Shown: positions 5,956 through 37,316 of the stretch, in pieces | How the letters are laid out: each line of letters starts with the position of its first letter | Numbering within the stretch: position 1 is the stretch's first letter | Assembly: GCA_963669315.1 (NCBI GenBank) | Contig: OY770021.1 | Coordinates: 3,277,467-3,317,466 of the forward strand | Origin: Paracoccaceae bacterium | Lineage (GTDB): Bacteria; Pseudomonadota; Alphaproteobacteria; Rhodobacterales; Rhodobacteraceae | Direction: 5' to 3' | Length of the DNA stretch: 40,000 nucleotides | Notes under the pieces: generated by a model | What the model saw: the letters and a program-made list of their open reading frames with translations, nothing else | Told to the model about the DNA's origin: nothing | Databases searched by the model: none | Translations under genes and position numbers: made by a program

Positions 5956-6702
5956 ATGCAAGACTCGAACTCAGGCCCCCCCCCGAGCAATTCTAGCGCA
6001 ATCGACGTTCTGGCGTTTTCGCAGGAAGCGGGCGCCGTGGCGGCGGACCCTGTCGCGTTTCTTAACCGCATCTGCGAAGTTTACGATCTGGATCACGCAA
6101 CATATGCGTCGATCATGCCTGACGGGCAGATCATCGGGTACACCAACTATCCCGAGGAATGGGTCAACTACTACATAGAGAACGAATTCCATACCATTGA
6201 TCCCGTCATTCAAACGGCCGCGAAAAGCATTGTTCCTGTCAATTGGCGCGCGATCGGCAATGACTACAAAGACAGTCTGGTCTTTCAGAAAGCGCGGGAA
6301 TACGGAATCGGATCGGCGGGCCTGAGCATTCCCGTGCGCGGCCCGTACGGAGAATTCGCGGTGTTTAGCGTCACCAAGGATTGCTCGGATGACAAATGGT
6401 CCGAGATGGTGGCCAGGTTGATCCGGGACTTTCAATCGATCGCCGTCTATATGCACGACTCTGTGCTGCGTGGTCACGGGCTGTTCAAGCTGTTGAATAA
6501 AAAGCCTCTTTCGAAGCGAGAGGCCGAAGTTCTGCAGTGGTACGCCCGCGGTAAAACGTCGAACGACATCGCCGTTCTGACCGGATTGCGCCCATCGACT
6601 GTCACGGCGTATCTGCAGTCGGCCCGCACAAAACTGAACGCGCTTTCAACGGCGCACGCGGCGGCCAGGGCGATCAGCATGGGCGCGATTGTAACCGACT
6701 GA
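5956..6702 (+). CDS. LuxR-family quorum-sensing transcriptional regulator (autoinducer-binding domain plus HTH)
   Basis: The N-terminal domain has W..Y......DP-type conserved residues (EEWVNYYIENEFHTIDPV). The C-terminal LuxR HTH reads LSKREAEVLQWYARGKTSNDIAVLTGLRPSTVTAYLQSARTKL. Confidence 0.9.
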   Translation: MQDSNSGPPPSNSSAIDVLAFSQEAGAVAADPVAFLNRICEVYDLDHATYASIMPDGQIIGYTNYPEEWVNYYIENEFHTIDPVIQTAAKSIVPVNWRAIGNDYKDSLVFQKAREYGIGSAGLSIPVRGPYGEFAVFSVTKDCSDDKWSEMVARLIRDFQSIAVYMHDSVLRGHGLFKLLNKKPLSKREAEVLQWYARGKTSNDIAVLTGLRPSTVTAYLQSARTKLNALSTAHAAARAISMGAIVTD

Positions 6703-6761
6703 TTCTGGACGGAACGCGCACAAATGCGCCGCCGACAGTATCAGTCCTGCGATTCTCCGAA

Positions 6762-6779
6762 ACCTCTAAAATTCTAGGT
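6762..6779. promoter_or_regulatory. lux-box-like imperfect palindrome ACCTCTAAAATTCTAGGT upstream of the AHL synthase gene
   Basis: 18-bp element with perfect outer arms ACCT...AGGT and about 12 of 18 positions self-complementary. It ends 68 bp upstream of the luxI-type ATG. Confidence 0.3.
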
Positions 6780-6846
6780 ATTCGCGATCGGCGAATTTAC
6801 GGCGAAGCTTGGTCATCGCAAATCGAGAAAGAGGGGAAACCGAACC

Positions 6847-7548
6847 ATGATCTACGTCGTCGATGCCCTGAACTACGCCAAAGCTCCCACCCTGTTGGAT
6901 GAGATGCACAAGCTTCGAGCGCGGGTATTCAAAGACCGGCTCGCTTGGGAGGTGAACGTCGTAAACGACAGGGAGAGAGACTATTTCGATGATCTCAAGC
7001 CTGTTTACCTTCTGCATGTCGACAACGAAGGCCGAGTTCTGGCGACGCTGCGATTGCTGCCGACCACCGGTCCGCACATGCTGTCCGACACTTTCCCGCA
7101 GTTGATGGACGAAGGGGAGCCGATCCGGTCGGCTAACATCTGGGAAAGCTCGCGTTTTTGCGTGGACACTGACATTCTGATTGGCGGCGATGGCCCTCGC
7201 GGGATCGGCAGGATCACCGGCGAGTTGTTATGCGGCGCCTATATGTTCGGCCAGGACGTTGGCCTGACGCATTTCACCTCCGCGTTCGATGTGATCATGC
7301 ATCGGGTTCTGCGGCGCGCCGGCGCAAAGCCGGATCTGGTGGGTAAGAAGAAACTGGTCGGCAAGGTCCATGCGCTGGCCGGATTGTTCGAAATCTCGCC
7401 CGAAACCATAGCGGATATTCGCGGACGTTGCGCCGTCGAAGGCCCGGTCTTGTCCTCGCCCGCTGCACTGATCGAGGCGGAGGCCGCGGCTGCGGCGCGC
7501 GTATCCAAACCGGTCGAAGAAGTTGCGCGTGTTCTGGAGCTGGCGTGA
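6847..7548 (+). CDS. Acyl-homoserine-lactone synthase (LuxI family)
   Basis: Motifs LRARVFKDRLAWEV, YLLHVDNEGRVLATLRLLPTTGPHML and WESSRFCVD are typical of LuxI-type synthases. It carries an Ala-rich C-terminal extension of about 30 aa. Confidence 0.9.
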   Translation: MIYVVDALNYAKAPTLLDEMHKLRARVFKDRLAWEVNVVNDRERDYFDDLKPVYLLHVDNEGRVLATLRLLPTTGPHMLSDTFPQLMDEGEPIRSANIWESSRFCVDTDILIGGDGPRGIGRITGELLCGAYMFGQDVGLTHFTSAFDVIMHRVLRRAGAKPDLVGKKKLVGKVHALAGLFEISPETIADIRGRCAVEGPVLSSPAALIEAEAAAAARVSKPVEEVARVLELA

Positions 7549-25540: not shown

Positions 25541-25865
25541 GTTGTGCAAATCTTTTCCAATTACTGGTAGTGTTCCCCCACGACGGTCGATGAAAGCACC
25601 CTCAAATGGGCAATCGACCTGTAAGCCAGTCCAAGCGTTTGGGAGGACGTCAAGAGAATGCTGTCGCCACTGAGTTGCCTCGATGCCGCCGTGAGGGCGG
25701 ATTTCATGCGGCGGGCGGCCCCGGTTTCGCACAAGTCGAAACCATTGAGAGGTGGGGAGCCGTTCGCGCCCCGTAAATGCAACGCAGTCGCGTCGTGAAG
25801 CGAAGGGCGCTGGCCCACGCAGACGACCAGCGCTGCGGCGCGAGAAAAGGAGAATGGGATACGCC

Positions 25866-26129
25866 ATGTCTGAAAAACTAGGAGTCGATAACGCCTATTG
25901 GAAGGCGAATATTCGACTAATTACGTGGTGCCTGGTGGTCTGGGCCTTCGTTTCATTTGGTCTGGGAATTCTGTTCCGGCCGATGCTCTCGGGCATTTCG
26001 GTCGGCGGAACTGATCTCGGATTCTGGTTCGCTCAGCAGGGATCGATCTACGTCTTTCTCGCGCTGATCTTCTTCTATGCGATCCGCATGAACGCGCTCG
26101 ATAAGAAATTCGGCGCCGAAGAAGATTAA
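25866..26129 (+). CDS. DUF4212-type small membrane subunit associated with solute symporters
   Basis: 87 aa with two TM helices (IRLITWCLVVWAFVSFGLGILF, GSIYVFLALIFFYAIRM), immediately upstream of an SSF symporter as in the VC_2705-type pairs. An alternative ATG lies at 25854. Confidence 0.8.
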   Translation: MSEKLGVDNAYWKANIRLITWCLVVWAFVSFGLGILFRPMLSGISVGGTDLGFWFAQQGSIYVFLALIFFYAIRMNALDKKFGAEED

Positions 26130-26143
26130 GGGGAAAAGAAACT

Positions 26144-27919
26144 ATGGATCTTCAAACTCTTACATACATCGTTGTGGGCGCCTCCTTTGCGCTTTACATC
26201 GGTATCGCCTTCTGGGCCCGTGCGGGCACCACAGGTGAGTTCTACGCCGCCGGTCGCGGCGTTCACCCGGTCGCCAACGGCATGGCCACGGCGGCTGACT
26301 GGATGTCGGCGGCCTCGTTCATTTCGATGGCCGGCCTGATCGCGTTCCGCGGCTACGACGCCTCGGTCTTCCTGATGGGCTGGACCGGCGGTTACGTGCT
26401 GCTGGCGCTGCTGCTTGCGCCGTATCTGCGCAAGTTCGGCAAGTTCACGGTGCCTGAGTTCATCGGCGACCGGTTCTATTCCAGCACCGCGCGCATCGTG
26501 GCCGTCATCTGCCTGATCGTCGCGTCGATCACCTACGTGATCGGCCAGATGAAGGGCGTTGGCGTCGCGTTCTCGCGCTTCCTGGAGGTTGACGCAAGCA
26601 CCGGTCTGCTGATCGGCACCGGCATCGTGTTCCTCTATGCGGTGCAGGGCGGCATGAAGGGCATCACCTACACGCAGATCGCCCAGTATTGCGTGCTGAT
26701 CTTCGCCTACACGGTTCCGGCGATCTTCATCTCGCTTGAGCTGACAGGCAACATCCTGCCTCAGCTGGGTCTCTTTGGCGATCACGTCGCCAGCGGCACG
26801 CCGCTTCTGGCCAAGCTGGACGCGACCGTTCAGGAGCTTGGTTTCACCCAGTACACGGCGCAATCAGGGGGCACGCTGAATATCGTCCTCTATACGCTGT
26901 CGCTGATGATCGGCACTGCGGGTCTGCCGCACGTCATCATGCGTTTCTTCACCGTGCCTAAGGTGAAAGACGCGCGCTGGTCCGCTGGTTGGGCGCTGGT
27001 CTTCATCGCTCTGCTCTACACCACGGCGCCTGGCGTCGGCGCGATGGCTCGCCTAAACCTGACCGATACGATCTGGCCGAGTGGCCCTCAGGCTGAGGCT
27101 CTGGCCTATGACGAGCGTCCCGACTGGTTCAAGAACTGGGAGGTCACCGGCCTTCTGACGTTCGAGGACAAGAATGGCGATGGCCGCATCCAGTACTACA
27201 ACGACAAGTCCAAGAGCGAAGAGTTCAACGCTGCGGCGACCGCCGCTGGTTGGGCCGGCAACGAGCTCAAGGTCGACCGGGACATCATGGTTCTGGCCAA
27301 TCCTGAGATCGCGAAACTGCCGAACTGGGTTATCGCTCTGGTGGCTGCGGGCGGTCTTGCGGCTGCGCTCTCCACCGCTGCAGGCTTGTTGATGGCCATC
27401 TCTTCATCGGTCTCGCATGACCTTCTGAAGGGTACGTTGATGCCGGATCTGACCGAGAAGCAAGAGCTTCTGGCGGCCCGGATATCCATGGCCGTGGCGA
27501 TCTCGATCGCCGCATGGCTGGGTCTGAATCCGCCAGGCTTCGCGGCGCAAGTTGTCGCCTTGGCCTTCGGTCTGGCCGCCTCGTCGATCTTCCCGGCGCT
27601 GATGATGGGAATCTTCTCTACGAAGATCAACGACAAGGGCGCGATCGCCGGCATGCTGGCCGGTCTGCTCGCCACCCTTCTCTACATCTTCACCTTCAAG
27701 GGTTGGTTCTTCGTCCCCGGCACGAACATGCTGGACAACACCACCGCGAACCACTTCCTGGGCATTGCGCCTGAGGCGTTCGGCGCGGTCGGCGCGGCGA
27801 TCAACTTCGGTGTCGCCTACATGGTGTCCGGCGCGACCTCAGCGGTTCCGGAGAACATCCGGCACCTGGTCGAAGACATCCGCGTCCCTAAAGGGGCCGG
27901 GGCTGCGGTCGATCACTAA
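26144..27919 (+). CDS. Sodium:solute symporter family permease (cation/acetate symporter ActP-like, DUF4212-associated subfamily)
   Basis: 591-aa polytopic SSF protein (GEFYAAGRGVHPVANGMATAADWMSAASFISMAGL...) with a soluble insertion mid-protein. AAGGGGA SD before ATG 26144. Confidence 0.9.
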   Translation: MDLQTLTYIVVGASFALYIGIAFWARAGTTGEFYAAGRGVHPVANGMATAADWMSAASFISMAGLIAFRGYDASVFLMGWTGGYVLLALLLAPYLRKFGKFTVPEFIGDRFYSSTARIVAVICLIVASITYVIGQMKGVGVAFSRFLEVDASTGLLIGTGIVFLYAVQGGMKGITYTQIAQYCVLIFAYTVPAIFISLELTGNILPQLGLFGDHVASGTPLLAKLDATVQELGFTQYTAQSGGTLNIVLYTLSLMIGTAGLPHVIMRFFTVPKVKDARWSAGWALVFIALLYTTAPGVGAMARLNLTDTIWPSGPQAEALAYDERPDWFKNWEVTGLLTFEDKNGDGRIQYYNDKSKSEEFNAAATAAGWAGNELKVDRDIMVLANPEIAKLPNWVIALVAAGGLAAALSTAAGLLMAISSSVSHDLLKGTLMPDLTEKQELLAARISMAVAISIAAWLGLNPPGFAAQVVALAFGLAASSIFPALMMGIFSTKINDKGAIAGMLAGLLATLLYIFTFKGWFFVPGTNMLDNTTANHFLGIAPEAFGAVGAAINFGVAYMVSGATSAVPENIRHLVEDIRVPKGAGAAVDH

Positions 27920-27964
27920 CTGAACTGGCTTCGCCCGGGCGCGACGACCCGGGCGAGGCCCCTT

Positions 27965-28013
27965 GAGCCGCTGGGCGCTTCCCCCCTCCATCACGCCCGG
28001 CGGCTCTTTTTTT
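27965..28013 (+). terminator. Rho-independent terminator after the symporter gene
   Basis: A 13-bp stem GAGCCGCTGGGCG / CGCCCGGCGGCTC (one G-U pair) with a 16-nt loop, followed by TTTTTTT (28007-28013). It is preceded by a second 8-bp GC hairpin at 27932-27955. Confidence 0.7.
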
Positions 28014-28073
28014 CCCGTCCTGCGGACTGGCGCTAAGTTAGGTCCGCTCTTCCTCGCAGAAAGCGCCGAGGCC

Positions 28074-29912
28074 ATGGACACGAATAAGATTAAATCCTTT
28101 CTCAGCTCGCGGCATCCGTTCGACGCGTTGACCGACGCCGAGCTTGAACATGTCGCATCTCGCACAACTCGCCGGAAGATGACCAAGGGAGAAGCCTTGG
28201 TGGAATTCGGTCATATGGTACCCGGCCTCTTCGTAGTCGAGACAGGCTATGTAGAGATCACGTCGCCAGAAAATGTTCTGATTTCGGTTATCCATATCGG
28301 TGACGCGTTCGGCGAGCGCGGCCTGCTGCGCGACGGGCGCGCGCCTGTCACGGCGACCTGTCAGGAAGATGGATCGGTTCTGCTGCTGCCGCAGACCGAG
28401 TTTCACCGTCTGGTGCAGGAGTCCCGACCTTTCGCGGAATTCTTCGACCGGCGGCTGAGCCGGGCGGCCGACAAGGGCAGGGCGCGCCGAACCGCGGTTG
28501 ATCTGACGACAACCAGGCTGGCCGACATCATGACGCCCGACCCGATCACCGTGGCGGCTGACGAAACCGTTGAGAACGCCGCTCGGACCATGCGCGACAA
28601 GAATATCTCATGCCTGCTTGTCGCGAAGGACGGCGCGCTTCAGGGCATCGTCACGACAAGCGATCTGACCAGCCGGATTCTGGCGGAAGGCCGGTTCGGC
28701 GACGTTCCGGTGCGTGAGGCGATGACGCCCGATCCGAAATCGTTGAGCCCGGAGGCTGTCGGCTTCGACGCGTTCGTGTGCATGGTCGAACATGATATCG
28801 GCCATTTCCCTGTGGTTGACGATGGCGCGTTGGTCGGCATCGTCACACGGACGCAGCTATTGAAGCGGCAGGACGTCTCGGCCGCCGCGATGATGCGCGA
28901 GATCGCGCGCGAAAGCGATATCGACGCGATGGCCAAAACGGTGAAAGGGATACCGCAATTGTTGGCCCGACTCGTCGGCGGAGGCGCAGAACACTATGTC
29001 GTCACCCGCCTCATCACCGATGTGGCCGACGCGTGCACGCGACGGCTGCTGGTGCTTGCGGAACAGAAACTCGGCCCGCCGCCGGTCCCGTATCTTTGGC
29101 TTGCGTGCGGCAGCCAGGGGCGGCGGGAGCAGACCGGCGTTTCGGACCAGGACAATTGCCTGATCCTTGATGACACCGCTACGGGGGCCGACGACGCATA
29201 TTTCGCCGAGTTGGCGAGGTTCGTCTCTGACGGGCTGGACGCTTGCGGGTACTATTATTGCCCCGGCGAGATGATGGCGACGAACCCGCGCTGGCGGCGG
29301 AAACTGTCGGTCTGGCGCGAGTATTTCGCAGGCTGGATCCGCACGCCCGATCCGATGGCGCAGATGCTGGCCTCGGTCATGTTCGATCTGCGCCCGATCA
29401 GCGGTGATACGCGCCTGTTTGAAGGGCTGCACGCCGAGACGCTGGCGAATGCGCGCGGCAACTCGATCTTCGTCGCGCATATGGTCTCCAATTCGTTGAA
29501 GCATCAGCCGCCTCTGAGCCTGTTTCGAGGCGTCGCGCTGATCCGATCCGGCGAACACAAAGACAAGGTCGATATGAAGCTGAGCGGCGTCGTGCCGGTG
29601 GTCGATCTTGGCCGCATCTATGCGCTGATGGGCGAGATTGAGGAGGTCGGGACCCATGCGCGGCTGGTGGCGGCGCGTGAGAAGAGCGTGATCAGCTCTG
29701 GCGGCGGATCTGATCTGATCGACGCCTACAATGTTATCGCTGAAGCGCGATTGCGGCATCAGATGCGTCAGATTCGAGAGGGAGACGCGCCGGATAACTT
29801 CCTTGCGCCGTCATCGCTGTCTGATCTGGCGCGCGAGCATATGCGTGACGCATTCGCTGTTGTGAAATCAATGCAGGCGGCGCTGGGGCAGGGGCGACAG
29901 TCAGTGCTCTAA
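28074..29912 (+). CDS. Cyclic-nucleotide-binding plus tandem CBS plus DUF294-type nucleotidyltransferase signalling protein
   Basis: The N-terminal cNMP-binding-like domain reads FGERGLLRDGRAPVTA. A CBS pair follows (IMTPDPITV...ISCLLV, AMTPDPKSL...HFPVVD). The nucleotidyltransferase motif is ACGSQGRREQTGVSDQDNCLIL (G-S...D-x-D), followed by a helical substrate-binding-like C-terminus. ATG 28074 is chosen downstream of the terminator. Confidence 0.85.
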   Translation: MDTNKIKSFLSSRHPFDALTDAELEHVASRTTRRKMTKGEALVEFGHMVPGLFVVETGYVEITSPENVLISVIHIGDAFGERGLLRDGRAPVTATCQEDGSVLLLPQTEFHRLVQESRPFAEFFDRRLSRAADKGRARRTAVDLTTTRLADIMTPDPITVAADETVENAARTMRDKNISCLLVAKDGALQGIVTTSDLTSRILAEGRFGDVPVREAMTPDPKSLSPEAVGFDAFVCMVEHDIGHFPVVDDGALVGIVTRTQLLKRQDVSAAAMMREIARESDIDAMAKTVKGIPQLLARLVGGGAEHYVVTRLITDVADACTRRLLVLAEQKLGPPPVPYLWLACGSQGRREQTGVSDQDNCLILDDTATGADDAYFAELARFVSDGLDACGYYYCPGEMMATNPRWRRKLSVWREYFAGWIRTPDPMAQMLASVMFDLRPISGDTRLFEGLHAETLANARGNSIFVAHMVSNSLKHQPPLSLFRGVALIRSGEHKDKVDMKLSGVVPVVDLGRIYALMGEIEEVGTHARLVAAREKSVISSGGGSDLIDAYNVIAEARLRHQMRQIREGDAPDNFLAPSSLSDLAREHMRDAFAVVKSMQAALGQGRQSVL

Positions 29913-30024
29913 ACAATTCCTGCGCAGGCCCGTATGGTCAGCGCTGACGACCGTTCGCCAGACAAAGCGGCCTGAGAATCCGCGGATGGCGAAATTGAAG
30001 ACTTAGCGGCGGGGAGGTCGCGCC

Positions 30025-30531
30025 ATGTTGTTCATGCTGATCGCGACATTTGCGGCGGGAGTCGTCGGGGCGGGGGTCGCTCTGATGGGGCCGCGCCTGT
30101 TCGGCAAACGCGCGCCGCGGCATCTGCCGCCGCTGGCCGCCGGCGTCGCCATGTTCGCCTTTATGCTCTGGAACGAATACTCGTGGTTCGACCGCTCGGT
30201 GAACGCGCTGCCCGGCGACGTCAAAATCGCATGGGCCGACGAGCATTCCAGCGCACTGCAACCCTGGACCCTGATTCAACCACGGATCAATCGTTTCGCT
30301 GCGATCGACATGGGCGCGGCGCGGCGCAATCCCGGTTTCCCAGATCAGATCATGGCCGAGGTTCTGCTGGTCTCACGATTCGATGACACCGCGTCGCGAA
30401 TGCAGGTATTCGATTGCGAAGGGCGACGCCGCGCGGACGCGCCCGAGGGCGATGCGGCGGCGGATTGGAGTCCGGACTGGGTAGAGGTCGGCGACGACGA
30501 CCCGCTGTTGATGGCGGCTTGTGGAGGCTGA
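30025..30531 (+). CDS. Hypothetical membrane protein (168 aa, two N-terminal TM helices)
   Basis: GGGGAGG SD before ATG 30025. TM segments are MLFMLIATFAAGVVGAGVALMG and PLAAGVAMFAFMLW, followed by a soluble domain with no recognisable motif. Confidence 0.55.
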   Translation: MLFMLIATFAAGVVGAGVALMGPRLFGKRAPRHLPPLAAGVAMFAFMLWNEYSWFDRSVNALPGDVKIAWADEHSSALQPWTLIQPRINRFAAIDMGAARRNPGFPDQIMAEVLLVSRFDDTASRMQVFDCEGRRRADAPEGDAAADWSPDWVEVGDDDPLLMAACGG

Positions 30532-30550
30532 GGACGAAAGGAGGCGATCG

Positions 30551-30928
30551 ATGGCGAAATCGGTTCTTATCGCGGATGACGAGGCGAACATCTCGTTGGC
30601 GATCCAGTTTCTGATGAAGCGCGCGGGATATGACGTTCGGGTCGCCGCTGACGGCGAAGAGGCGCTGGATGCAGTCAGGGACTCGCCCCCCGACCTGATC
30701 GTTCTGGATGTGATGATGCCCAAGCGGGACGGCTATGACGTGTGCCAGTCCATCCGCAGCGATCCCGATCTTTCCGACATTAAAATCGTGATGGTCAGCG
30801 CCAAGGGCGGGCCAATCGAGGTGGAGAAGGGCAAGGCGCTGGGGGCGGACGACTATCTGGTCAAGCCGTTCTCGACGCAGGAGTTGGCGGATCGCGTGGC
30901 CCAGTTGCTCTCTGACGACGCGGCCTGA
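30551..30928 (+). CDS. Stand-alone response-regulator receiver (CheY-like, no output domain)
   Basis: 125 aa with [27 protein letters not shown] and LVKPF, clearly paralogous to the receiver at 23489-23872. AAAGGAGG SD. Its stop lies 2 nt before the next ATG. Confidence 0.9.
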
Positions 30929-30930
30929 TC

Positions 30931-33075
30931 ATGTTTGAGGACTGGAGCCTCAGGCGGCGTGTCTTTCTGTTCTTCGCGTTGATCGCTTGCGGCGCTGCAA
31001 TCGCCATCGGCGCTGGCATGTGGTTCGCAGCGGCGCGGATTGGAGAGGGCGCCGGCCCCCCGCTGGTGCTTTTTGGCGGCGGGGCGGGTTTCGCAATCGT
31101 GCTGCTGACCATGTGGGTCTGGAGGATGTTCGACGAAAACGTCGCGATCCCGATTCAGGCCCTTGGCAGGCAGTTGGAGACTCAGGCCCACTCTGTCGCG
31201 GACGCGGACAAGCTGGTAACAAGGCGCGCGAAATATTTGGGACCGCTCGCCGGCGGCGCGGAAGATATCGCGAACGCTCTGTCCCGCGCCAGAGAAGAGG
31301 TGGAGGATGAGGTCGAGCGCGCGGTCGCCGAGGCGGATCGCAAGAAGGCGCAGCTTGAGGCGGTGTTGCGGGATCTTAAAAGCGGCATCCTGATCTGCAC
31401 GCTGGATCATCGCATCCTTCTCTACAATCTGGAGGCCCTTAAGCTGCTGCATGTGTCGGGCGAGTTGGGGCTGGGCCGCAGATTCACATCGCTCGTTACG
31501 GAACAGCCGATGCTTCACGCTCTCGAACGGCTGATGAACAGGTTCAAAACCCGCCGATATAAGACCCACCGCGATGGCTTGGGCGTGGGTGTCGTGTGCG
31601 CTACGCGGGATGACGGTCGGACGCTGCAGGGAAGGGTCAGCTTGGTGCTGGACGCCGCCGAAACCGCGGTTGAAGGCTATGTCGTGACTCTCGACGATGT
31701 CACGAAAACCATTGCGGCGCATACGGCGCGCGACCATCTATTGTCAGATGCACTGGATGGCGTGAGGCGACCTGTCGCCAATTTGCGCGCGTCGGTCGAG
31801 ATGATGGCGCAACTCACAGCGGATGATGGCGATGCGCGAGAGATGTTCGAGAAAGTTCTGGCGGACGAGTCCTTAACTTTGTCGAGGCGGATTGAGGCGT
31901 TGGCCGCGCGTCAAAGAGAATTGCGCGTCGGTGGTTTTCCGATGGAGGATGCGTACTCCTCAACGCTGTTCACCTGCGTGCAAGAGCGGCTGCGCGACGA
32001 TGCCGCCGTTAAGCTCGAGCCAGAGGGGCCGCCATGTTGGGTGCATTGCGAAAGCCTGACGGTGGTGGAGCTGCTGGCTGGCGCGGCGGCGCTGGTCGCT
32101 TCCTTGGCGGAGGAAACGGATGGCGCGGCCCCCTGGCTGAGTATGAGAGCCGGCGCCACCGATGCGCGCGTCTATTTCGATCTGCTTTGGTCCGGACAGC
32201 CTTTGCCGATGTCGCGGATCGAAAACTGGCTGGATGAGCCTTTGGCCGACAGCCTCGGCGGCCTGACCGCGAGGGATGTGCTGGCCCGGCACCGCACAGA
32301 GTTCTGGTCGGATCATGAACAGGATGGCCGTGCGCGGCTGCGTCTACCGTTGTCGCTGGCGGTCGAGGATCATGAGGGCGCCCCGGCCATGCCTCTGCCG
32401 GCGCGGCCCGAGTTCTATGACTTCGATCTTCTGGGGGCGGAGACTCCCTCAGATCTGGCTGACACGCCTCTAAAAGAGCTGACATTCGTAGTTTTCGACA
32501 CCGAGACCACCGGGCTCGACCCGTCAGGCGGTGATGAAATCGTGCAGATCGCCGGGCTTCGGGCGGTCAATGGGCGGATCATGCGTGGCGAGGTGTTTGA
32601 CGAGCTGGTCAATCCCGGCCGACGCATTCCCGCTGCATCGACTCGGGTGCATCGCATCACCGATCAGATGGTCGCCAAGGAGGATCGGATAGAGCAGGTC
32701 CTGCCTCGTTTTCACAACTACGCCGCGGATTCAGTGCTGATCGCGCACAATGCGGCATTCGACATGAAGTTCTTGCGTCTGAAAGAGTCGCGTTGCGGAC
32801 TGCGCTTCGAAAACCCGGTGCTCGATACCGTTCTTCTGTCCGCGTTTCTGTTCGATCAGATAGGCGAACATACGCTGGATGCTTTGGCCGAACGATTCGG
32901 AATTCGCATCCCCGAAGACGAGAGGCACACGGCGCTGGGCGACTCTCTGGCGACCGGGCAGGCGTTTTTGCATATGCTGGATCCGCTGACGGCGCGGGGA
33001 ATTGAAACGCTGGGTCAGGCGCAGGACGCGTCCGCCAAAATGTCGGCGATCCGGCGGCGTCAGGCGCAGTATTAG
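30931..33075 (+). CDS. Membrane-anchored sensor (2 TM, PAS-like, degenerate histidine-kinase-like core) fused to a DnaQ/epsilon-type DEDDh 3'-5' exonuclease
   Basis: It has two N-terminal TM helices and a PAS-like segment ([22 protein letters not shown]...). A DHp-like helix [22 protein letters not shown] has Asp where the H-box His is expected. The following region, about 130 aa long, has no N or G boxes. The exonuclease motifs are [25 protein letters not shown] and [12 protein letters not shown]. Confidence 0.85.
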
Positions 33076-33295
33076 CCTAGTATTAAAGGGCGAAACGGAA
33101 TCCTGGAAAAAGCCTGAGGCGATTCGCAGAAGCGGTTTCACTCGGCAAAATTGTGAAACGTCTGGGCGCTCCGTCTGGGTCGTAATTCTAGCACCTCAAG
33201 AAAAGTTCATCTTTGACCGCAACAAGTTCTGGCAAAATTTGACGCCAATTGTGAAATTCTGGTATCTTGAATCCAGTTTTGTAGGGAGTTGGGGC

Positions 33296-35008
33296 ATGAT
33301 TAAACGCTCACGTTCATCTCATCGGTCCATGATCAGGGCGGTGAGCGCCGCAAGGCTGACTCTATCCAGATTCATCAAAGACACGACCGGCGCGATTGTT
33401 CTGCAGACGCTCGTGTTCTTCCTGTTCGTGATGGGTGTCGCCGGTCTGGTGATCGATGTTGGCCGTATTTACGTGGTCAACACCTCGGCCCAATCCTATG
33501 TCGATCAACTCGCGCTTGCTGCTGCGACGGAACTCGACGGCAAATCGGGCGCGAGGCAGCGCGCGCGTCTCGCGGCCTTTGGTAAATCGGTCGATGAGGA
33601 CGAGCACACCGATAACACTCTTAAAAAGATGATACCGTTTGCCGACACTTCGGACTTGTTCGGGGTGAAAGAGCTGATTTTCATCAAAGAGCTTTTTCCG
33701 GATTCGGGGTTTCAGTACAAAGTCGACGACCTTCTTGGCGCCAGCAATTCGAACATTGCGACGACAGACGCTGAGGCCGAGTATGTCATAGTCATCGCCG
33801 AACCTTCGGGAATTGCGACCACGCTGCTTAGCATCGCTCGGTTAGGATCGAGTTCCGATGACGCAGTGCCAGGCACCCTGATCACCTCTGCGGTCGCCGT
33901 CGCCGGGCTGGAGGATGGCGGCATTTGCGAGACGCCGATGTTCATGTTCTGCAACCCGCGTGAGCCGAGCGAGCTCTCTTCGATTGGCAGCATCACGGGT
34001 CGGCAAATGATCCTCAAAAATCATGGCAAGAAGGTCGGTGGCGCTGACACCAGTTGGGCGCCGGGCAACTATGGCACGATTGATTTGCCGGACGATGCTT
34101 TTGGCGCATGCCCGAACAGCAGCGGCAATGCAGCTTCGCGGCAGCGCTGTCTGCTAGGGATCAATTCGCTGCAGAAATCCTGCACCACAACCACCGTCGA
34201 TATGGATCCGGGGCAATCGATCAGCATCCATACCGGGCTGAATCTGCGGTTCGGCATGTTTGACTCGCAGACGGAAAGCTTTCGAGACGATGCGAACTTC
34301 TCCCCTGACGTCAATGTCATCAAGGGGGCGGAATACACGCCGAAAAACAACGACAACAAACCTTGCTACAATGACCAATACACCGATTGGACGGAATCCG
34401 CCTATCTTCCGCGCTCGCCATGCCTTGCGGCCGGCAACTGCGCCTCTCACGCCAGTGGAATGGGGTATGCGCGGATAAGTCCGCCGATTTCCGTTGAGAC
34501 GCCCAGCGCCTTGTCGACCTACTGGGGGACGAACCACAGCGACCACAGCACGTTCGCAGCTGCGGAAACGGACGCCAGCAATAACTACAACAACACGTTC
34601 TTTCCGGATGTGATCGGGCTTGGCCTGGACACCCGCTACGAGATGTATCTGTACGAGACGTATGGCGCCGATTCTCTTGGAAATGACTTCCTTTCCGATG
34701 TCGGCGCCACCTCGGGGGTGCAGGAAGTCGGCGATCCGAACAGCGGCACGCCGACTTGCACGTCCGCGCCAGGCTTGCCGAACAGGCGGGTGATGATCGT
34801 CGCCTCTGTCAATTGCACCGACGAGGGCGTCTCTGGCAACTCCAGCGGTGTGGAGGTGGATGAATATTTTTGGGCCTTCATGACTGAACCGGTGAAAGAC
34901 AACTCCGATACGACAAGCGAAGACGATATTTATGTGGAGTTCATTCGACAGATCACCAACAAGGATGATCCGAAGATCATCCATGCCTATCCCTTGTTGC
35001 ATCGGTGA
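33296..35008 (+). CDS. TadG-like protein (Flp-pilus-assembly TadE/G-like N-terminal domain, 570 aa)
   Basis: N-terminal segment TTGAIVLQTLVFFLFVMGVAGLVIDVGRIYVVNTSAQSYVDQLALAAA is typical of the TadG-type N-domain. A GNYGTIDL motif follows later. ATG 33296 has a GGGAG SD. The track ORF start at 33002 lies in AT-rich intergenic DNA. Confidence 0.75.
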   Translation: MIKRSRSSHRSMIRAVSAARLTLSRFIKDTTGAIVLQTLVFFLFVMGVAGLVIDVGRIYVVNTSAQSYVDQLALAAATELDGKSGARQRARLAAFGKSVDEDEHTDNTLKKMIPFADTSDLFGVKELIFIKELFPDSGFQYKVDDLLGASNSNIATTDAEAEYVIVIAEPSGIATTLLSIARLGSSSDDAVPGTLITSAVAVAGLEDGGICETPMFMFCNPREPSELSSIGSITGRQMILKNHGKKVGGADTSWAPGNYGTIDLPDDAFGACPNSSGNAASRQRCLLGINSLQKSCTTTTVDMDPGQSISIHTGLNLRFGMFDSQTESFRDDANFSPDVNVIKGAEYTPKNNDNKPCYNDQYTDWTESAYLPRSPCLAAGNCASHASGMGYARISPPISVETPSALSTYWGTNHSDHSTFAAAETDASNNYNNTFFPDVIGLGLDTRYEMYLYETYGADSLGNDFLSDVGATSGVQEVGDPNSGTPTCTSAPGLPNRRVMIVASVNCTDEGVSGNSSGVEVDEYFWAFMTEPVKDNSDTTSEDDIYVEFIRQITNKDDPKIIHAYPLLHR

Positions 35009-35049
35009 ATTGTGTGCGTAGGCATGGACGACAGGCGGATGGTTGGCGT

Positions 35050-35514
35050 ATGGATCGAAAGCTGAGAAACCTTCTTCGAGACCCAAATGGAGGGCTGTCC
35101 ATTGAACTGGTGATCGCCTTGCCATTGATCGCGGTCGCCCAGGCCCTCGCGTTCGATGTCGGTCGCGTCATCATCGATCAACATGCGCTTGAATCCGGCG
35201 TTCGGGATGCGGCGCGTTATCTCGCTCGCGCCCAGGTTGACGATTGCCCCGATGCAGGCACCGGTTATTGGAAAGTGTACCATAGGTTGGTTGCGACAGG
35301 CGTGCAGTCAGACATTGTTTCCAGCGACATTCAATGCAACTTCAGGCCGTTGTTTGATGGATCAACGAGTGCGTTGAGGGTTGAATACACTCGGGTAGAG
35401 ATTGTCGCGGAAATCAATGTCACGACGCCACTGACCAGGTTCGCCGCCTGGGGAGCATGGGACGGCGGTATCACGATAGCTGCTTCCGATCAGGCGCGGT
35501 TTATTGGAGAGTAA
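35050..35514 (+). CDS. TadE/TadF-like pseudopilin
   Basis: N-terminus DPNGGLSIELVIALPLIAVAQALAFDVG matches the TadE-like prepilin-type pattern (G / xxxE plus a hydrophobic helix). 154 aa from ATG 35050. Confidence 0.7.
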   Translation: MDRKLRNLLRDPNGGLSIELVIALPLIAVAQALAFDVGRVIIDQHALESGVRDAARYLARAQVDDCPDAGTGYWKVYHRLVATGVQSDIVSSDIQCNFRPLFDGSTSALRVEYTRVEIVAEINVTTPLTRFAAWGAWDGGITIAASDQARFIGE

Positions 35515-35517
35515 GAC

Positions 35518-36204
35518 GTGAGGGTAATTCGAAAGCTGAAAGCACTTTGGCGCGATGAAAAGGGGATGCATTCGATTGAGTTCCCGCTCGTCTTCTTTTT
35601 CATGTTCATGTTCGTCATGTTCGCGTTTCAGGTCGCTTTCGCGATGTTCGAGTTGATTTCGGTGGAAAAGGCCGCCCACGCAGCTGCGCGGATCGCCGCT
35701 GTCCGAGATCCCGTCCATACGAGCGTGCCTTCCACCAATGCGGCCGTTTCACCGGATACACTCGGCGATTGGTGTGGCGTCGGAGCAAATTGCACAAACC
35801 CCGGCGGGCCTTGGGTTTGTAGTCTCGACAGCACAGACACCGGCTGCGATTCCAGCCGGATGCAAGTGATCTACACCGACATGATGCGCTATGGAATTCG
35901 CGTTGCGCCTGACGATATGACGATTTCCTATACTTATGGGTGGTTGGGCTATGCCGGAGGTCCGTTTGCGCCGATTGTTGAGGTGACCATTGAATCTCGG
36001 CCGTTTTTGTTCAGTTTTGTGCCGTTGATCGGCGGTGATTTGGTTCGCCGTCCAGTGACGGCTACCGCTGTTGGCGAAGATCTGGCGACCAACTATACTG
36101 GGTTTGCCAGCAGCACTTCCAGCACGAGCACCAGCACATCGACGTCGACCACCACCTCCAGCACGAGCGGTGGTGATGATACATCGACGTCTAGCGGCGG
36201 CTAG
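35518..36204 (+). CDS. TadE/TadF-like pseudopilin with Ser/Thr-rich C-terminal tail
   Basis: GTG start at 35518. The N-terminus is EKGMHSIEFPLVFFFMFMFVMFAFQVAFAMFE (G / xxxEF plus helix). The C-terminus is SSTSSTSTSTSTSTTTSSTSGGDDTSTSSGG. Confidence 0.7.
   Translation: MRVIRKLKALWRDEKGMHSIEFPLVFFFMFMFVMFAFQVAFAMFELISVEKAAHAAARIAAVRDPVHTSVPSTNAAVSPDTLGDWCGVGANCTNPGGPWVCSLDSTDTGCDSSRMQVIYTDMMRYGIRVAPDDMTISYTYGWLGYAGGPFAPIVEVTIESRPFLFSFVPLIGGDLVRRPVTATAVGEDLATNYTGFASSTSSTSTSTSTSTTTSSTSGGDDTSTSSGG
36109..36201 (+). repeat. Low-complexity AGC/ACS triplet repeat encoding a Ser/Thr tract
   Basis: The DNA runs agcagcacttccagcacgagcaccagcacatcgacgtcgaccaccacctccagcacgagc... at the 3' end of the third Tad-like gene. 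Confidence 0.6.
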
Positions 36205-36316
36205 CGGCGGCAACAGCAACGGCGGCAATCCACATAACTAGTTTACTAGCCTAAGCGCCTGATGGCGCGAGATTATGCCGCGTGATCAATTCGGCGCGGA
36301 CATAGCAAGATTCAGG

Positions 36317-36348
36317 ATCGGCGCCGCGCTTTTCATGCCGGCGCCGAT
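36317..36348 (+). terminator. Candidate terminator hairpin downstream of the Tad-like genes
   Basis: Perfect 10-bp inverted repeat ATCGGCGCCG / CGGCGCCGAT with a 12-nt loop, followed by TGCTGTTGTG (T-containing, but not a clean U-tract). Confidence 0.35.
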
Positions 36349-36626
36349 TGCTGTTGTGAGATATCAAACCGCCCGGAAGTGAAGTGGCTCTGGTTTTCGG
36401 GCGGCTCGGCGATGTTTTCAAAGTGGAACCAGGTTAGATTTCACGCCGACGCGCTCGAACCAGGTCAGCAGCGGAGCAATTTTCGGCCTCGGCGATTTCG
36501 CGCTTCCTGGCGGTGCTGGTGTTGAAGCACCCTGTGAAGAGGAGGCCGCGCAATGTTGAGCACCTATTCCGTCGCCATCGCCGAGACAACGCGGTCCGCA
36601 AATCACCGGCTGCGAGAGGCGCACTG

Positions 36627-36758
36627 ATGTTTGTCGTCTGCGGAGAAGCCCTTTGGGATCTGTTCGCTGTCGAGCAAGGCGGCGCGCTTGAATTCGACGC
36701 GCGGATCGGCGGCTCTCCTTTCAATGTCGCCGTCGGCCTGTCGCGGCTGGGGCAGAGG
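36627..36758 (+). pseudogene. 5' fragment (44 codons) of a PfkB-family sugar kinase (fructokinase-like)
   Basis: MFVVCGEALWDLFAVEQGGALEFDARIGGSPFNVAVGLSRLGQR matches the canonical N-terminus of rhizobial-type fructokinases (CGEAL.D....GGS.FN.A..L.RLG). After this the sequence switches abruptly to integrase. Confidence 0.7.
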
Positions 36759-37316
36759 CGCGATCGCTGGCTCAGCGAAGAAGAACTTCAAAGGCTTTGG
36801 GCAGCGTTGGATGAATACCCTGACTATCCGCCAGCCAACGCAATCCAGCTGCAGATTCTCACCGGCGCGCGGTTGGGCGAAGTCCTCAGAGCGAGGCGCG
36901 CTGATTTCGACCTTTCCCGCGGCGTTTGGACCAAGCCGTCTTACGAGACGAAGCAGAAGCGCACTGAACATGTGCCGTTGGGCGAAGATGCCGCCGGTAT
37001 CGTTGAGAGGGTCATCCAAACATCGAGCGGCGATTCCGAGTGGTTGTTTCCCGGCCGCAAGGAAGGCGAGCCGCTCAAGGACATTAAGAGATCTTGGATG
37101 TCTCTGCTCAAACATGCGAGCATCGAGGATTACCGGAGGCACGACAACCGCCACACCTATGCGTCTCATCTGGTGTCGTCGGGTCTCAGCCTCGAAGTGG
37201 TCGGGCGGCTGCTGGGCCATACATCGGCGCAGACGACCAAGCGATATGCGCACCTTGCCGACGACGCGCTGCGAGAGGCCAATAACGTCTTTGGTCGGAA
37301 ACTGCCAAACCGCTGA
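36759..37316 (+). mobile_element. 3' fragment (catalytic domain only) of a tyrosine recombinase/phage-type integrase, fused in frame to the kinase fragment
   Basis: RWLSEEELQRLWAALDE, box I LQILTGARLGEVLRARRADF, then HDNRHTYASHLV...LGHTSAQTTKRYAHL (R...H-x-x-R...H...Y). The N-terminal arm-binding and core-binding domains are absent. Confidence 0.8.

Follow-up and report, generated by a model that had tools for sequence, protein, structure and literature searches.

The subject of this work is a pair of abutting genes in a 40,000-nucleotide (nt) stretch of the genome of a Paracoccaceae bacterium (GenBank assembly GCA_963669315.1, contig OY770021.1, positions 3,277,467 to 3,317,466 of the forward strand), hereinafter the window. 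One gene encodes a stand-alone receiver and the other a 714-amino acid (aa) protein in which a membrane-anchored, histidine-kinase-like core is fused to an exonuclease. The core is predicted to be unable to autophosphorylate, because (i) its phospho-acceptor His has been replaced by Asp or Glu; (ii) the Mg-ATP-binding Asn has been lost; and (iii) so has the adenine-binding Asp. The nuclease is predicted, from its motifs and fold, to be catalytically complete and of the DEDDh 3'-5' type. This fusion is a member of a large, widespread and apparently undescribed family and not a one-off. On balance, we lean towards its being the effector of a module made up of a kinase, a receiver and a pseudo-kinase/exonuclease, lodged in an acetate/monocarboxylate uptake cluster. 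The coordinates of all the features are collected in Table 1.

The homology of the core with histidine kinases is visible only with family profiles, since a single-sequence PDB search with residues 241-500 returned no match. Neither HisKA nor HATPase_c (Pfam) is matched at threshold in the 714-aa protein; weak HisKA matches occur in 10 of 15 family members, and HATPase_c is found neither in the fusion nor in 15 relatives. A profile of 58 homologues matches VicK (PDB 4i5s) over residues 50-472 (E 4e-16), followed by ThkA, YycG/WalK, DivL and ZraS. The family-profile alignment to VicK spans the PAS, DHp and CA domains over residues ~120-460 (E 1e-13 to 4e-16), and the matches that run through both DHp and CA are 4i5s, 3a0r, 4u7n and 9m08. 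A kinase-like fold, as proposed in an earlier reading made from the letters of the window (the sequence-only reading), is also present in the structural model, whose best Foldseek matches in the PDB are WalK, VicK, YF1 chimeras and ThkA (E 3e-17 to 6e-11).

That reading had also placed Asp276 (codon 31756-31758) where the phospho-accepting His of the H-box is expected, and two alignments bear it out. The VicK H-box SHELRTPL aligns with the family motif L(E/D)xLRRPxANL, so that the VicK His lands on position 276, and the genuine kinase of the window aligns likewise (SHELRTP with the LDGVRRP of the fusion, its His on Asp276). Column 276 holds Glu 27 times and Asp 10 times in the 58 sequences, 46 and 23 times in 83 sequences from 80 genomes, and 112 and 37 times, with no His, in 231 full-length relatives. 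No other conserved His appears in the family column counts for residues 258-335; the conserved DHp residues are R279, P281, A283, N284, L285 and E290. The sole member of the 231 with a His near the H-box is P0186 (693 aa), which reads LLRNMLNHFRAPLGSL, with the His one position after the usual acidic residue. Its H-box region resembles the canonical SHEFRTP and it could be an ancestral or reverted form.

As regards the ATP-binding side, the VicK N-box (NNAIKY) aligns with a family segment lacking any Asn, and its G1 box (DQGLG) with W-x-G (W420, G422), the near-invariant Trp420 replacing the G1 Asp. The sequence-only reading had seen no N, G1 or G2 box: this stands for the N-box Asn and the G1 Asp, both of which are gone, while G2 persists as a vestige (LGGxT/SGRD). 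The same reading had described a region of about 130 aa without an ATPase lid; the lid is indeed some 11 residues shorter than that of VicK, but a full CA-like alpha/beta domain is present (residues 339-476). This domain also keeps a vestigial HxxxxW motif (H454...W459), and its conserved residues are W370, W420, G422, W433, H454 and W459. With no conserved phospho-acceptor His among the 231 relatives and no working ATP boxes in the profile alignment to VicK, the name of pseudo-kinase is well founded. The possibility that the dead kinase is a recent duplicate of the neighbouring real kinase was rejected, given an identity of 24% over 58 DHp residues.

The C-terminal domain matches Pfam RNase_T above the cut-off (residues 520-678, E 3e-33) and, by profile, the PolC-type structure 2p1j (E 2e-43). 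Its catalytic residues D523, E525, D611, H666 and D671 are invariant in the 58 sequences and kept in >97% of the 231. Foldseek superposes the model on the PolC exonuclease 9qpc with a root-mean-square deviation of 1.7 A over 190 columns and 33% identity; DnaQ (2gui, TM-score 0.84) and the DinG exonuclease are matched too, and the PolC, DinG and DnaQ superpositions range from 1.7 to 2.3 A. The exonuclease motifs are thus intact, as had been claimed, and nothing points to a dead domain. Likewise, all the strings quoted in that claim are present in the translation, at residues 271-285, 523-528 (DTETTG), 606-611 (HNAAFD) and 666-671 (HTALGD, the H-x4-D motif).

Some sources label members of the family as 'DNA polymerase III subunit epsilon' or 'exonuclease domain-containing protein'. 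The NCBIfam dnaQ models reach 108.6 bits against a cut-off of 222.7 (TIGR01406) and 99 against 196 (NF004316), and cover only residues 520-706 of 714. Judged from these scores, the family is not DnaQ and the epsilon label is misleading. A role in anti-phage defence was considered and rejected: PADLOC gave only generic matches to the DEDDh and REC domains and assembled no anti-phage system.

The rest of the architecture was read from an AlphaFold2 model built on the family alignment (mean predicted local distance difference test score, pLDDT, 80.5; ~90 across the CA-like domain) and from conservation. The pair of transmembrane helices is a membrane anchor and not a periplasmic sensor; the same two-helix N-terminus is found in the distant relatives at loci L075 and L067. 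For the linker that follows, the description 'HAMP-like' holds as to helix topology in the model, and HAMP-containing chains are reached by profile at only E 0.03-0.06, but there is no Pfam HAMP match in the fusion. The PAS-like domain proposed from the sequence is confirmed through its relatives: PAS_9 stays under its threshold in the fusion itself (23.3 bits, cut-off 27) but is plain in relatives (best E 7.6e-8), and the WalK PAS structure 4mn5 is matched at E 1.7e-6. Its family-conserved residues are H160, LLYN (163-166), GLGR (180-183), H196 and R200. Between the CA-like and exonuclease domains, the linker motif RPEFYDFDL ranks, the catalytic motifs aside, with the best-conserved segments of the family, in spite of a model pLDDT <50 at 492-495: F495, Y496, D497, F498 and L500 are invariant in the 58 sequences, and the YDF core is retained in most of 82 locus copies (exceptions include FDF in L017, L039 and L076, and TDF in L056). 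This linker could be a docking or autoinhibitory peptide.

Directly in front of the fusion lies the receiver gene. Read from the DNA, it starts at an ATG preceded 7-8 nt upstream by an AGGAGG Shine-Dalgarno sequence, whereas the list of open reading frames (ORFs) alone gives the frame as 135 aa from GTG 30521. Its TGA (30926-30928) is followed by 'tc' and then by the ATG of the fusion, which agrees with the 2-nt gap reported from the sequence. The phospho-acceptor set of the receiver is intact (acidic pair D9/D10, D53, S83, K105) and its orthologues are strongly conserved across the related loci. In thirteen of these loci (L010, L014, L015, L027, L030, L031, L045, L046, L055, L056, L060, L067 and L075) receiver and fusion share one reading frame with a single stop between them, and in several of the same loci the spacing between kinase and receiver is ~3 nt. 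This arrangement suggests tight translational coupling.

The fusion is matched over its full length by 380 homologues. When the pseudo-kinase module alone (residues 100-505) was searched against 1.84 billion cluster representatives (clusters at 50% identity), 151 clusters matched at E <1e-30. Nearly all of them are ~700 aa long and carry the module at ~100-500 and, therefore, the dead-kinase module is almost always fused to the exonuclease. The loci represent the Alpha-, Beta- and Gammaproteobacteria, the Magnetococcales and the Nitrospirota, together with some bins that carry a Chloroflexota label; among the named carriers are Rhodobacter capsulatus, Zoogloea, Dechloromonas, Hydrogenophaga and a Pseudomonas species. 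No pseudo-kinase/exonuclease fusion, nor its link with a receiver and an SLC5 kinase, was found described in the literature covered, most subscription journals being outside that coverage. One member, P0148 (1154 aa), consists of the pseudo-kinase and a truncated exonuclease (without Exo III) that runs on, in frame, into a CBS-DUF294 nucleotidyltransferase. Whether a natural two-enzyme fusion or an artefact of assembly or frameshift, it confirms the adjacency of the two genes.

The gene context was compared in 80 related genome loci, whose stop-to-stop reading frames were screened with the proteins of the window; 75 of them could be judged for an upstream receiver. A receiver orthologue (E 1e-30 to 1e-51) lies directly 5' of the fusion in at least 60 of these 75, at a spacing of 2-30 nt in most loci. 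An orthologue of the non-hybrid SLC5 kinase of the window is adjacent and on the same strand in half of the 80 loci (28 upstream, 12 downstream), and the gaps between kinase, receiver and fusion are often just a few nt. All 41 kinase-bearing loci have the receiver gene: 39 by strict adjacency, L002 with the receiver downstream, and L080, which is a coordinate misparse. No DNA-binding (helix-turn-helix, HTH) regulator is conserved across the 80 loci.

The companions of this trio are also recurrent. DUF294 is present in 60 of the 80 loci and the symporter in 47, and the order DUF4212, symporter, DUF294 is the same in related loci. Three loci illustrate the range: (i) L075 reads acs, kinase, receiver, fusion, short DUF294, full DUF294, 217-aa ORF, symporter; (ii) L012 reads acs, adk, DUF4212, symporter, DUF294, small membrane protein, receiver, fusion; and (iii) in L067, from Pseudomonas, the kinase-receiver-fusion trio stands alone among unrelated genes. 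The best reading is that the fusion unit belongs to a conserved acetate/monocarboxylate uptake cluster; this setting is assigned because the symporter subunits belong to TIGR03647 and TIGR03648, acs is present in L075, and acs and adk are present in L012. The synteny with signalling and acetate-uptake genes holds across three proteobacterial classes and beyond.

The DUF294 gene itself varies. Two consecutive DUF294 genes lie downstream of the fusion in the Rhodocyclales-type loci L066, L069, L072, L074, L075 and L078, a short one (~400 aa, nucleotidyltransferase and C-terminal domain) being followed by a full cNMP-CBS-DUF294 gene. A pair is found in L052 and L064 as well, neither gene having a full cNMP-binding N-terminus as judged by phmmer coverage. 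In L074 and L075 an ORF of 217-250 aa, whose family is unclear, lies between DUF294 and symporter.

The kinase of the window, whose H-box and ATPase domain are canonical, has the non-hybrid form found in these loci: SSF covers residues 59-451, HisKA 675-741 and HATPase_c 788-897 (Pfam), and the protein ends right behind HATPase_c. Residues 15-616 match PDB 10ed_A, entitled 'histidine kinase' (E 1e-74), which is probably the CbrA transceptor (PMC13022988). This kinase is the probable phosphodonor of the receiver.

Whether the receiver and the DHp-like hairpin belong together can be approached through the copies that have no adjacent receiver gene. The DHp is cut from 61-69 to 38-46 residues in 5 of the 12 receiver-less copies vs none of the 70 with a receiver. 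All five shortened hairpins have lost the RRPxANL motif, each by a different deletion pattern, and in three of them (L036, L037 and L049) the gene for the small membrane protein directly abuts the fusion, as if the receiver gene had been excised. In the family, the DHp positions His+3, +7, +8, +11 and +14, which we take to be the usual receiver-contact positions, are well conserved. Synteny and the joint loss of DHp and receiver indirectly support the suggestion of the sequence-only reading that the pseudo-kinase could dock the adjacent receiver, and it probably does so.

To our knowledge, the main documented case of a pseudo-kinase reading a receiver is so far DivL of Caulobacter crescentus, which acts in cell-cycle control. 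It is a kinase put to a new use, as the reader of the phosphorylated single-domain receiver DivK~P (PMC4211667). The fusion resembles it in (i) the PAS-DHp-CA architecture with a replaced phospho-acceptor His (Tyr in DivL, Asp or Glu here); (ii) the proposed partner, a single-domain receiver, which is here encoded directly upstream; and (iii) the proposed conversion of the kinase 'output' face into an input sensor for the phosphorylation state of the receiver. Nevertheless, the two are not orthologues, since DivL (4q20) is matched at E 4e-5 to 5e-6, more weakly than WalK, VicK and ThkA. Furthermore, DivL relays to another kinase, CckA, via PAS domains and has no enzymatic output, whereas here the exonuclease lies in cis, the residues that bind ATP are gone from the CA domain and receiver binding is a prediction.

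The closest parallel to the output side is provided by stand-alone DUF294 and exonuclease genes. In P. alloputida these are the strongest targets of MxtR/ErdR (CrbS/R), and their mutants show mild propionate and pyruvate phenotypes, their function being unknown (10.64898/2026.09.07.749794). The DUF294 protein Pflu5625 is likewise a CrbS/R target and is predicted to nucleotidylate proteins (PMC5715377), while DUF294_C has been grouped with the C-terminal domains of GlnD and GlnE (PMC3710099). Cofitness links the DUF4212 genes of Shewanella and P. stutzeri to a nearby gene described by the authors as COG2905 (RNase T domain protein), which, they speculate, is needed for expression of the symporter (10.1101/072470). 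These pairs (PP_0354/PP_0353, Pflu5625, Sama_1525 and Psest_0349), compared by description and gene order, have the same companions as the fusion, apparently in the same order by locus tag (DUF4212, VC_2705-type symporter, cNMP-CBS-DUF294, exonuclease), and share with it the link to acetate, propionate, pyruvate and lactate use and the control by an SLC5-fused kinase. They differ in that the RNase T-like product is reported to be separate and control is transcriptional, by the LuxR-type CrbR, whereas here the exonuclease is joined to a membrane-anchored dead kinase with a receiver in front. This joining, together with the upstream receiver, implies direct post-translational control.

The regulator CbrB, for its part, is of the NtrC type. 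The known SLC5/STAC two-component systems are CrbS/CrbR, RpuS/RpuR and CbrA/CbrB (PMC5715377, PMC9100948, PMC13022988); CrbS and RpuS are hybrids, each carrying a receiver of its own, and work with DNA-binding partners of the LuxR type, while CbrA pairs with CbrB (PMC9100948). The kinase of the window shares with them an SLC5-type N-terminus fused to HisKA and HATPase_c and the link to monocarboxylates. It differs in being non-hybrid, and the module in having a free receiver and no DNA-binding regulator.

Two further comparisons concern the enzyme. PorX is a response regulator whose output, a PglZ phosphodiesterase, has oligonucleotides as its substrates (PMC9757075); it resembles the proposed pathway in that the output of a two-component system is the hydrolysis of nucleotide phosphodiesters and not only DNA binding, but it has the fold of the alkaline-phosphatase superfamily instead of DEDDh, and its enzyme is fused to the receiver itself. 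With PolC/DnaQ (epsilon), DinG and Cas2-DEDDh, the exonuclease shares the fold and the five catalytic residues, identity to the PolC-type structures 9qpc and 2p1j being 33-38%. Unlike these proteins, the fusion has no polymerase, helicase or Cas2 partner domain. It also differs from PolC and DnaQ in scoring far below the NCBIfam dnaQ and polC cut-offs and in its setting, which is signalling and transport and not replication or repair.

In the pathway that we favour, the SLC5 kinase would report the availability of acetate or other monocarboxylates and phosphorylate the receiver, for which acetyl-phosphate might be an alternative phosphate donor. The phosphorylated receiver would bind the dead kinase at its DHp bundle, in the manner of DivK~P and DivL, and this docking would alter the shape of the DHp/CA-like dimer and, with it, the activity or the pairing of the two C-terminal exonucleases at the membrane. 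The exonuclease and the DUF294 nucleotidyltransferase may then cooperate on, or oppose each other at, one and the same substrate, on which the expression or activity of the symporter would depend; candidates are an RNA 3' end, an oligonucleotide or a nucleotidylated protein. If both enzymes act on such a symporter-controlling substrate, it follows that the pathway would end post-transcriptionally and without a DNA-binding regulator.

A number of observations weigh against this pathway. In the window itself the kinase lies 7.7 kb from the receiver and the fusion, on the opposite strand, and in Rhodobacterales-type loci no kinase occurs within the 8 kb examined. About 12 of the 75 judgeable loci have no adjacent receiver, several of them with an intact DHp. 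The contrast in DHp shortening (Fisher p 2.9e-5) is not corrected for phylogeny. Mutual information with average product correction over 64 receiver/fusion pairs, too few and too closely related, gives top pairs scattered by domain size with no enrichment in the DHp. The nearest relatives of the exonuclease, as far as its sequence tells, are the DNA-proofreading PolC and DnaQ, which give no hint to its real substrate. The comparison with the stand-alone DUF294/exonuclease pairs draws on descriptions and gene order and not on homology of the exonuclease sequences. Finally, the 217-aa ORF of L075 was considered as a second exonuclease and rejected, as it resembles neither the exonuclease domain nor any family searched.

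Three other explanations were weighed. It is unlikely, but deserves attention, that a cytoplasmic metabolite bound by the PAS domain controls the exonuclease, the dead kinase being an anchored dimerisation and PAS scaffold and the receiver acting elsewhere (on the DUF294 enzyme, the symporter or the flagellar motor, or as a phosphate sink). The conserved polar residues H160, N166, R183, H196 and R200 suggest a ligand pocket, and this explanation accommodates the receiver-less loci, the full-length DHp kept in 7 of the 12 receiver-less copies and the lack of a covariation signal among closely related pairs. It fits poorly with a DHp surface conserved family-wide, though a mere dimerisation bundle would tolerate change, with the confinement of DHp shortening to receiver-less copies, and with receiver and fusion lying so few nt apart in most loci and forming, with the kinase, a trio that also occurs alone.

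Less probable still is that the dead kinase regulates the pathway instead of receiving its signal, either by heterodimerising with or titrating the SLC5 kinase, in the style of RetS-GacS, or as a phosphatase or sink of the phosphorylated receiver, in which case the exonuclease would be constitutive or under some other control. The two proteins both reside in the membrane, have alignable HisKA-type DHp hairpins and are the products of neighbouring genes in 40 of the 80 loci, and the acidic residue at the His site, with Gln at +4 in 32 of the 231 relatives, faintly recalls phosphatase motifs. Nevertheless, position His+4, which is the phosphatase Thr/Asn in HisKA kinases, is here an unconserved Arg, Gln, Ala or Gly, and the two DHp regions are only 24% identical; moreover, this explanation accounts neither for the near-constant fusion to an exonuclease nor for the lack of any other conserved output protein in the minimal three-gene loci. 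There is very little probability left for an active kinase, ordinary or unorthodox, or for a housekeeping exonuclease of the Pol III epsilon type, devoted to proofreading or repair and next to a receiver by chance, in spite of the epsilon name given to some members and the resemblance of the domain to PolC and DnaQ. The sequence evidence largely rules out both: there is no His, N-box or G1 motif, the dnaQ scores fall far under their cut-offs (108.6 vs 222.7 and 99 vs 196), the domain shares its chain, in 151 clusters, with ~500 residues of kinase-like sequence anchored in the membrane, and the synteny with signalling and acetate-uptake genes recurs in three proteobacterial classes and beyond.

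Table 1. Features of the window that bear on the receiver/fusion unit (positions of the window; residues of the 714-aa protein).
Feature	Position	Strand	Evidence
SLC5/SSF-fused non-hybrid sensor histidine kinase, 901 aa	20558..23263	-	HisKA E 2.6e-19, HATPase_c E 3.2e-24, SSF E 7.4e-5
RamB/ScfR-like HTH regulator	23992..25395	-	Pfam ScfRs E 2.6e-27, HTH_3; NCBIfam RamB E 1.2e-56, below cut-off
DUF4212 symporter small subunit	25866..26129	+	NCBIfam TIGR03647 E 2e-32, 111 bits vs cut-off 26
VC_2705-family sodium/solute symporter large subunit	26144..27919	+	TIGR03648 E 1.6e-250, 832 bits vs cut-off 321
cNMP-binding/CBS pair/DUF294 (GlnD/GlnE-like) nucleotidyltransferase	27963..29912	+	DUF294 E 1.3e-48, DUF294_C E 3.8e-41, CBS, cNMP_binding
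Small membrane protein, 168 aa, no known family	30025..30531	+	Homologue at the same position in 23 loci
Stand-alone receiver (REC), 125 aa, without output domain	30551..30928	+	Pfam Response_reg E 1.2e-28
Membrane-anchored pseudo-histidine-kinase/DEDDh exonuclease fusion, 714 aa	30931..33075	+	ORF, homologues, model, fold matches
Two transmembrane helices, residues ~7-66, periplasmic loop of ~5 residues	30949..31128	+	Hydrophobic model helices 7-37 and 42-87
Helix-connector-helix linker, residues 67-147	31129..31371	+	Model helices 42-87 and 105-147; HAMP-like by topology only
Cytoplasmic PAS, residues 148-257	31372..31701	+	PAS_9 E 7.8e-5, sub-threshold; WalK PAS 4mn5; conserved columns
DHp-like helical hairpin, residues 258-330	31702..31920	+	Alignment to the H-boxes of VicK and the window kinase; column counts
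Degenerate CA-like (Bergerat-fold) domain, residues 339-476	31945..32358	+	VicK/ThkA profile alignment, pLDDT ~90, Foldseek
Linker motif RPEFYDFDL, residues 492-500	32404..32430	+	Conserved columns; lies between CA-like and exonuclease domains
Predicted DEDDh 3'-5' exonuclease, PolC/DnaQ-like, residues 518-690	32482..33000	+	Pfam RNase_T, PDB profile, Foldseek

As for the neighbouring genes, the probable true start of the DUF294 gene is ATG 28074. The 168-aa protein has two N-terminal hydrophobic helices, lies between DUF294 and REC in 23 alphaproteobacterial loci and has no match in Pfam, NCBIfam or PADLOC. The RamB/ScfR-like gene is of a type that regulates acetate and short-chain-acyl-CoA metabolism; it provides context only, and no homologue of it was found in the 80 related loci.

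The 470-nt gap between this gene and the DUF4212 gene (25396-25865) contains a very AT-rich patch at ~25470-25560 and, before the ribosome-binding site, a GC hairpin at 25807-25833. A 'TIGR03647 riboswitch candidate' has been described upstream of the small-subunit gene (PMC6429828). In the window, the TIGR03647 RNA motif was sought without success: there is no Rfam match at the gathering score anywhere, and none at E up to 10 in 25350-26200. The 276-nt DUF4212 leader folds no better than its shuffles (z -0.52), and a cis-regulatory RNA target upstream of DUF4212 was therefore rejected on these two results. The only element common to the upstream regions of 22 related loci is a generic GC hairpin before the ribosome-binding site, and a promoter and terminator scan of 25300-33500 gave nothing above shuffle expectation.

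On the 3' side of the fusion, the 33300-37316 region contains Tad/Flp pilus-like genes (TadG-like, TadE-like and TadE/TadF-like) and a phage-type integrase (36513-37316). Its GC content falls to 0.56-0.59, which suggests a possibly mobile segment bordering the operon. Farther upstream, at 16477-20424 on the minus strand, there is a 1315-aa, Lys/Ala-rich, partly coiled-coil ORF in a genome of 62% GC; it belongs to no Pfam family, has only a marginal ZorA-like match in PADLOC (E 3e-4) and lies where the AT skew is strongly negative (-0.25 to -0.33). It has the look of a large protein that is foreign or secreted. At 5956-7548 on the plus strand, a LuxR-type autoinducer-binding regulator and a LuxI-type synthase (quorum sensing) lie beside TRAP transporter and amidase genes.

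In textbooks, two-component systems switch transcription. The three-gene module described here, which is conserved and has no DNA-binding partner, appears to end in a nuclease, that is, in a different kind of output. What is new is the combination of (i) a proposed DivL-like reversed signalling; (ii) a DEDDh nuclease; and (iii) an SLC5 two-component system, each part of which is known. An exonuclease wired to a phosphorylation signal would be an entry point to the unexplained DUF294/exonuclease genes of the CrbS/R regulon. A bolder version, which we put forward only tentatively and hold to be distinctly less probable than the effector role itself, is that of a widespread, transcription-factor-free pathway that would run from the SLC5 kinase through the free receiver to the dead-kinase reader and have the exonuclease as its last step. 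Exonuclease and DUF294 would form an eraser/writer pair that switches monocarboxylate uptake post-transcriptionally at the membrane, the shared substrate being perhaps the 3' end of a particular RNA (for example a tRNA or the mRNA of the symporter), an oligonucleotide that serves as a signal, or a nucleotidylated protein. If true, this would give a function to the long-orphan DUF294/exonuclease genes of that regulon.

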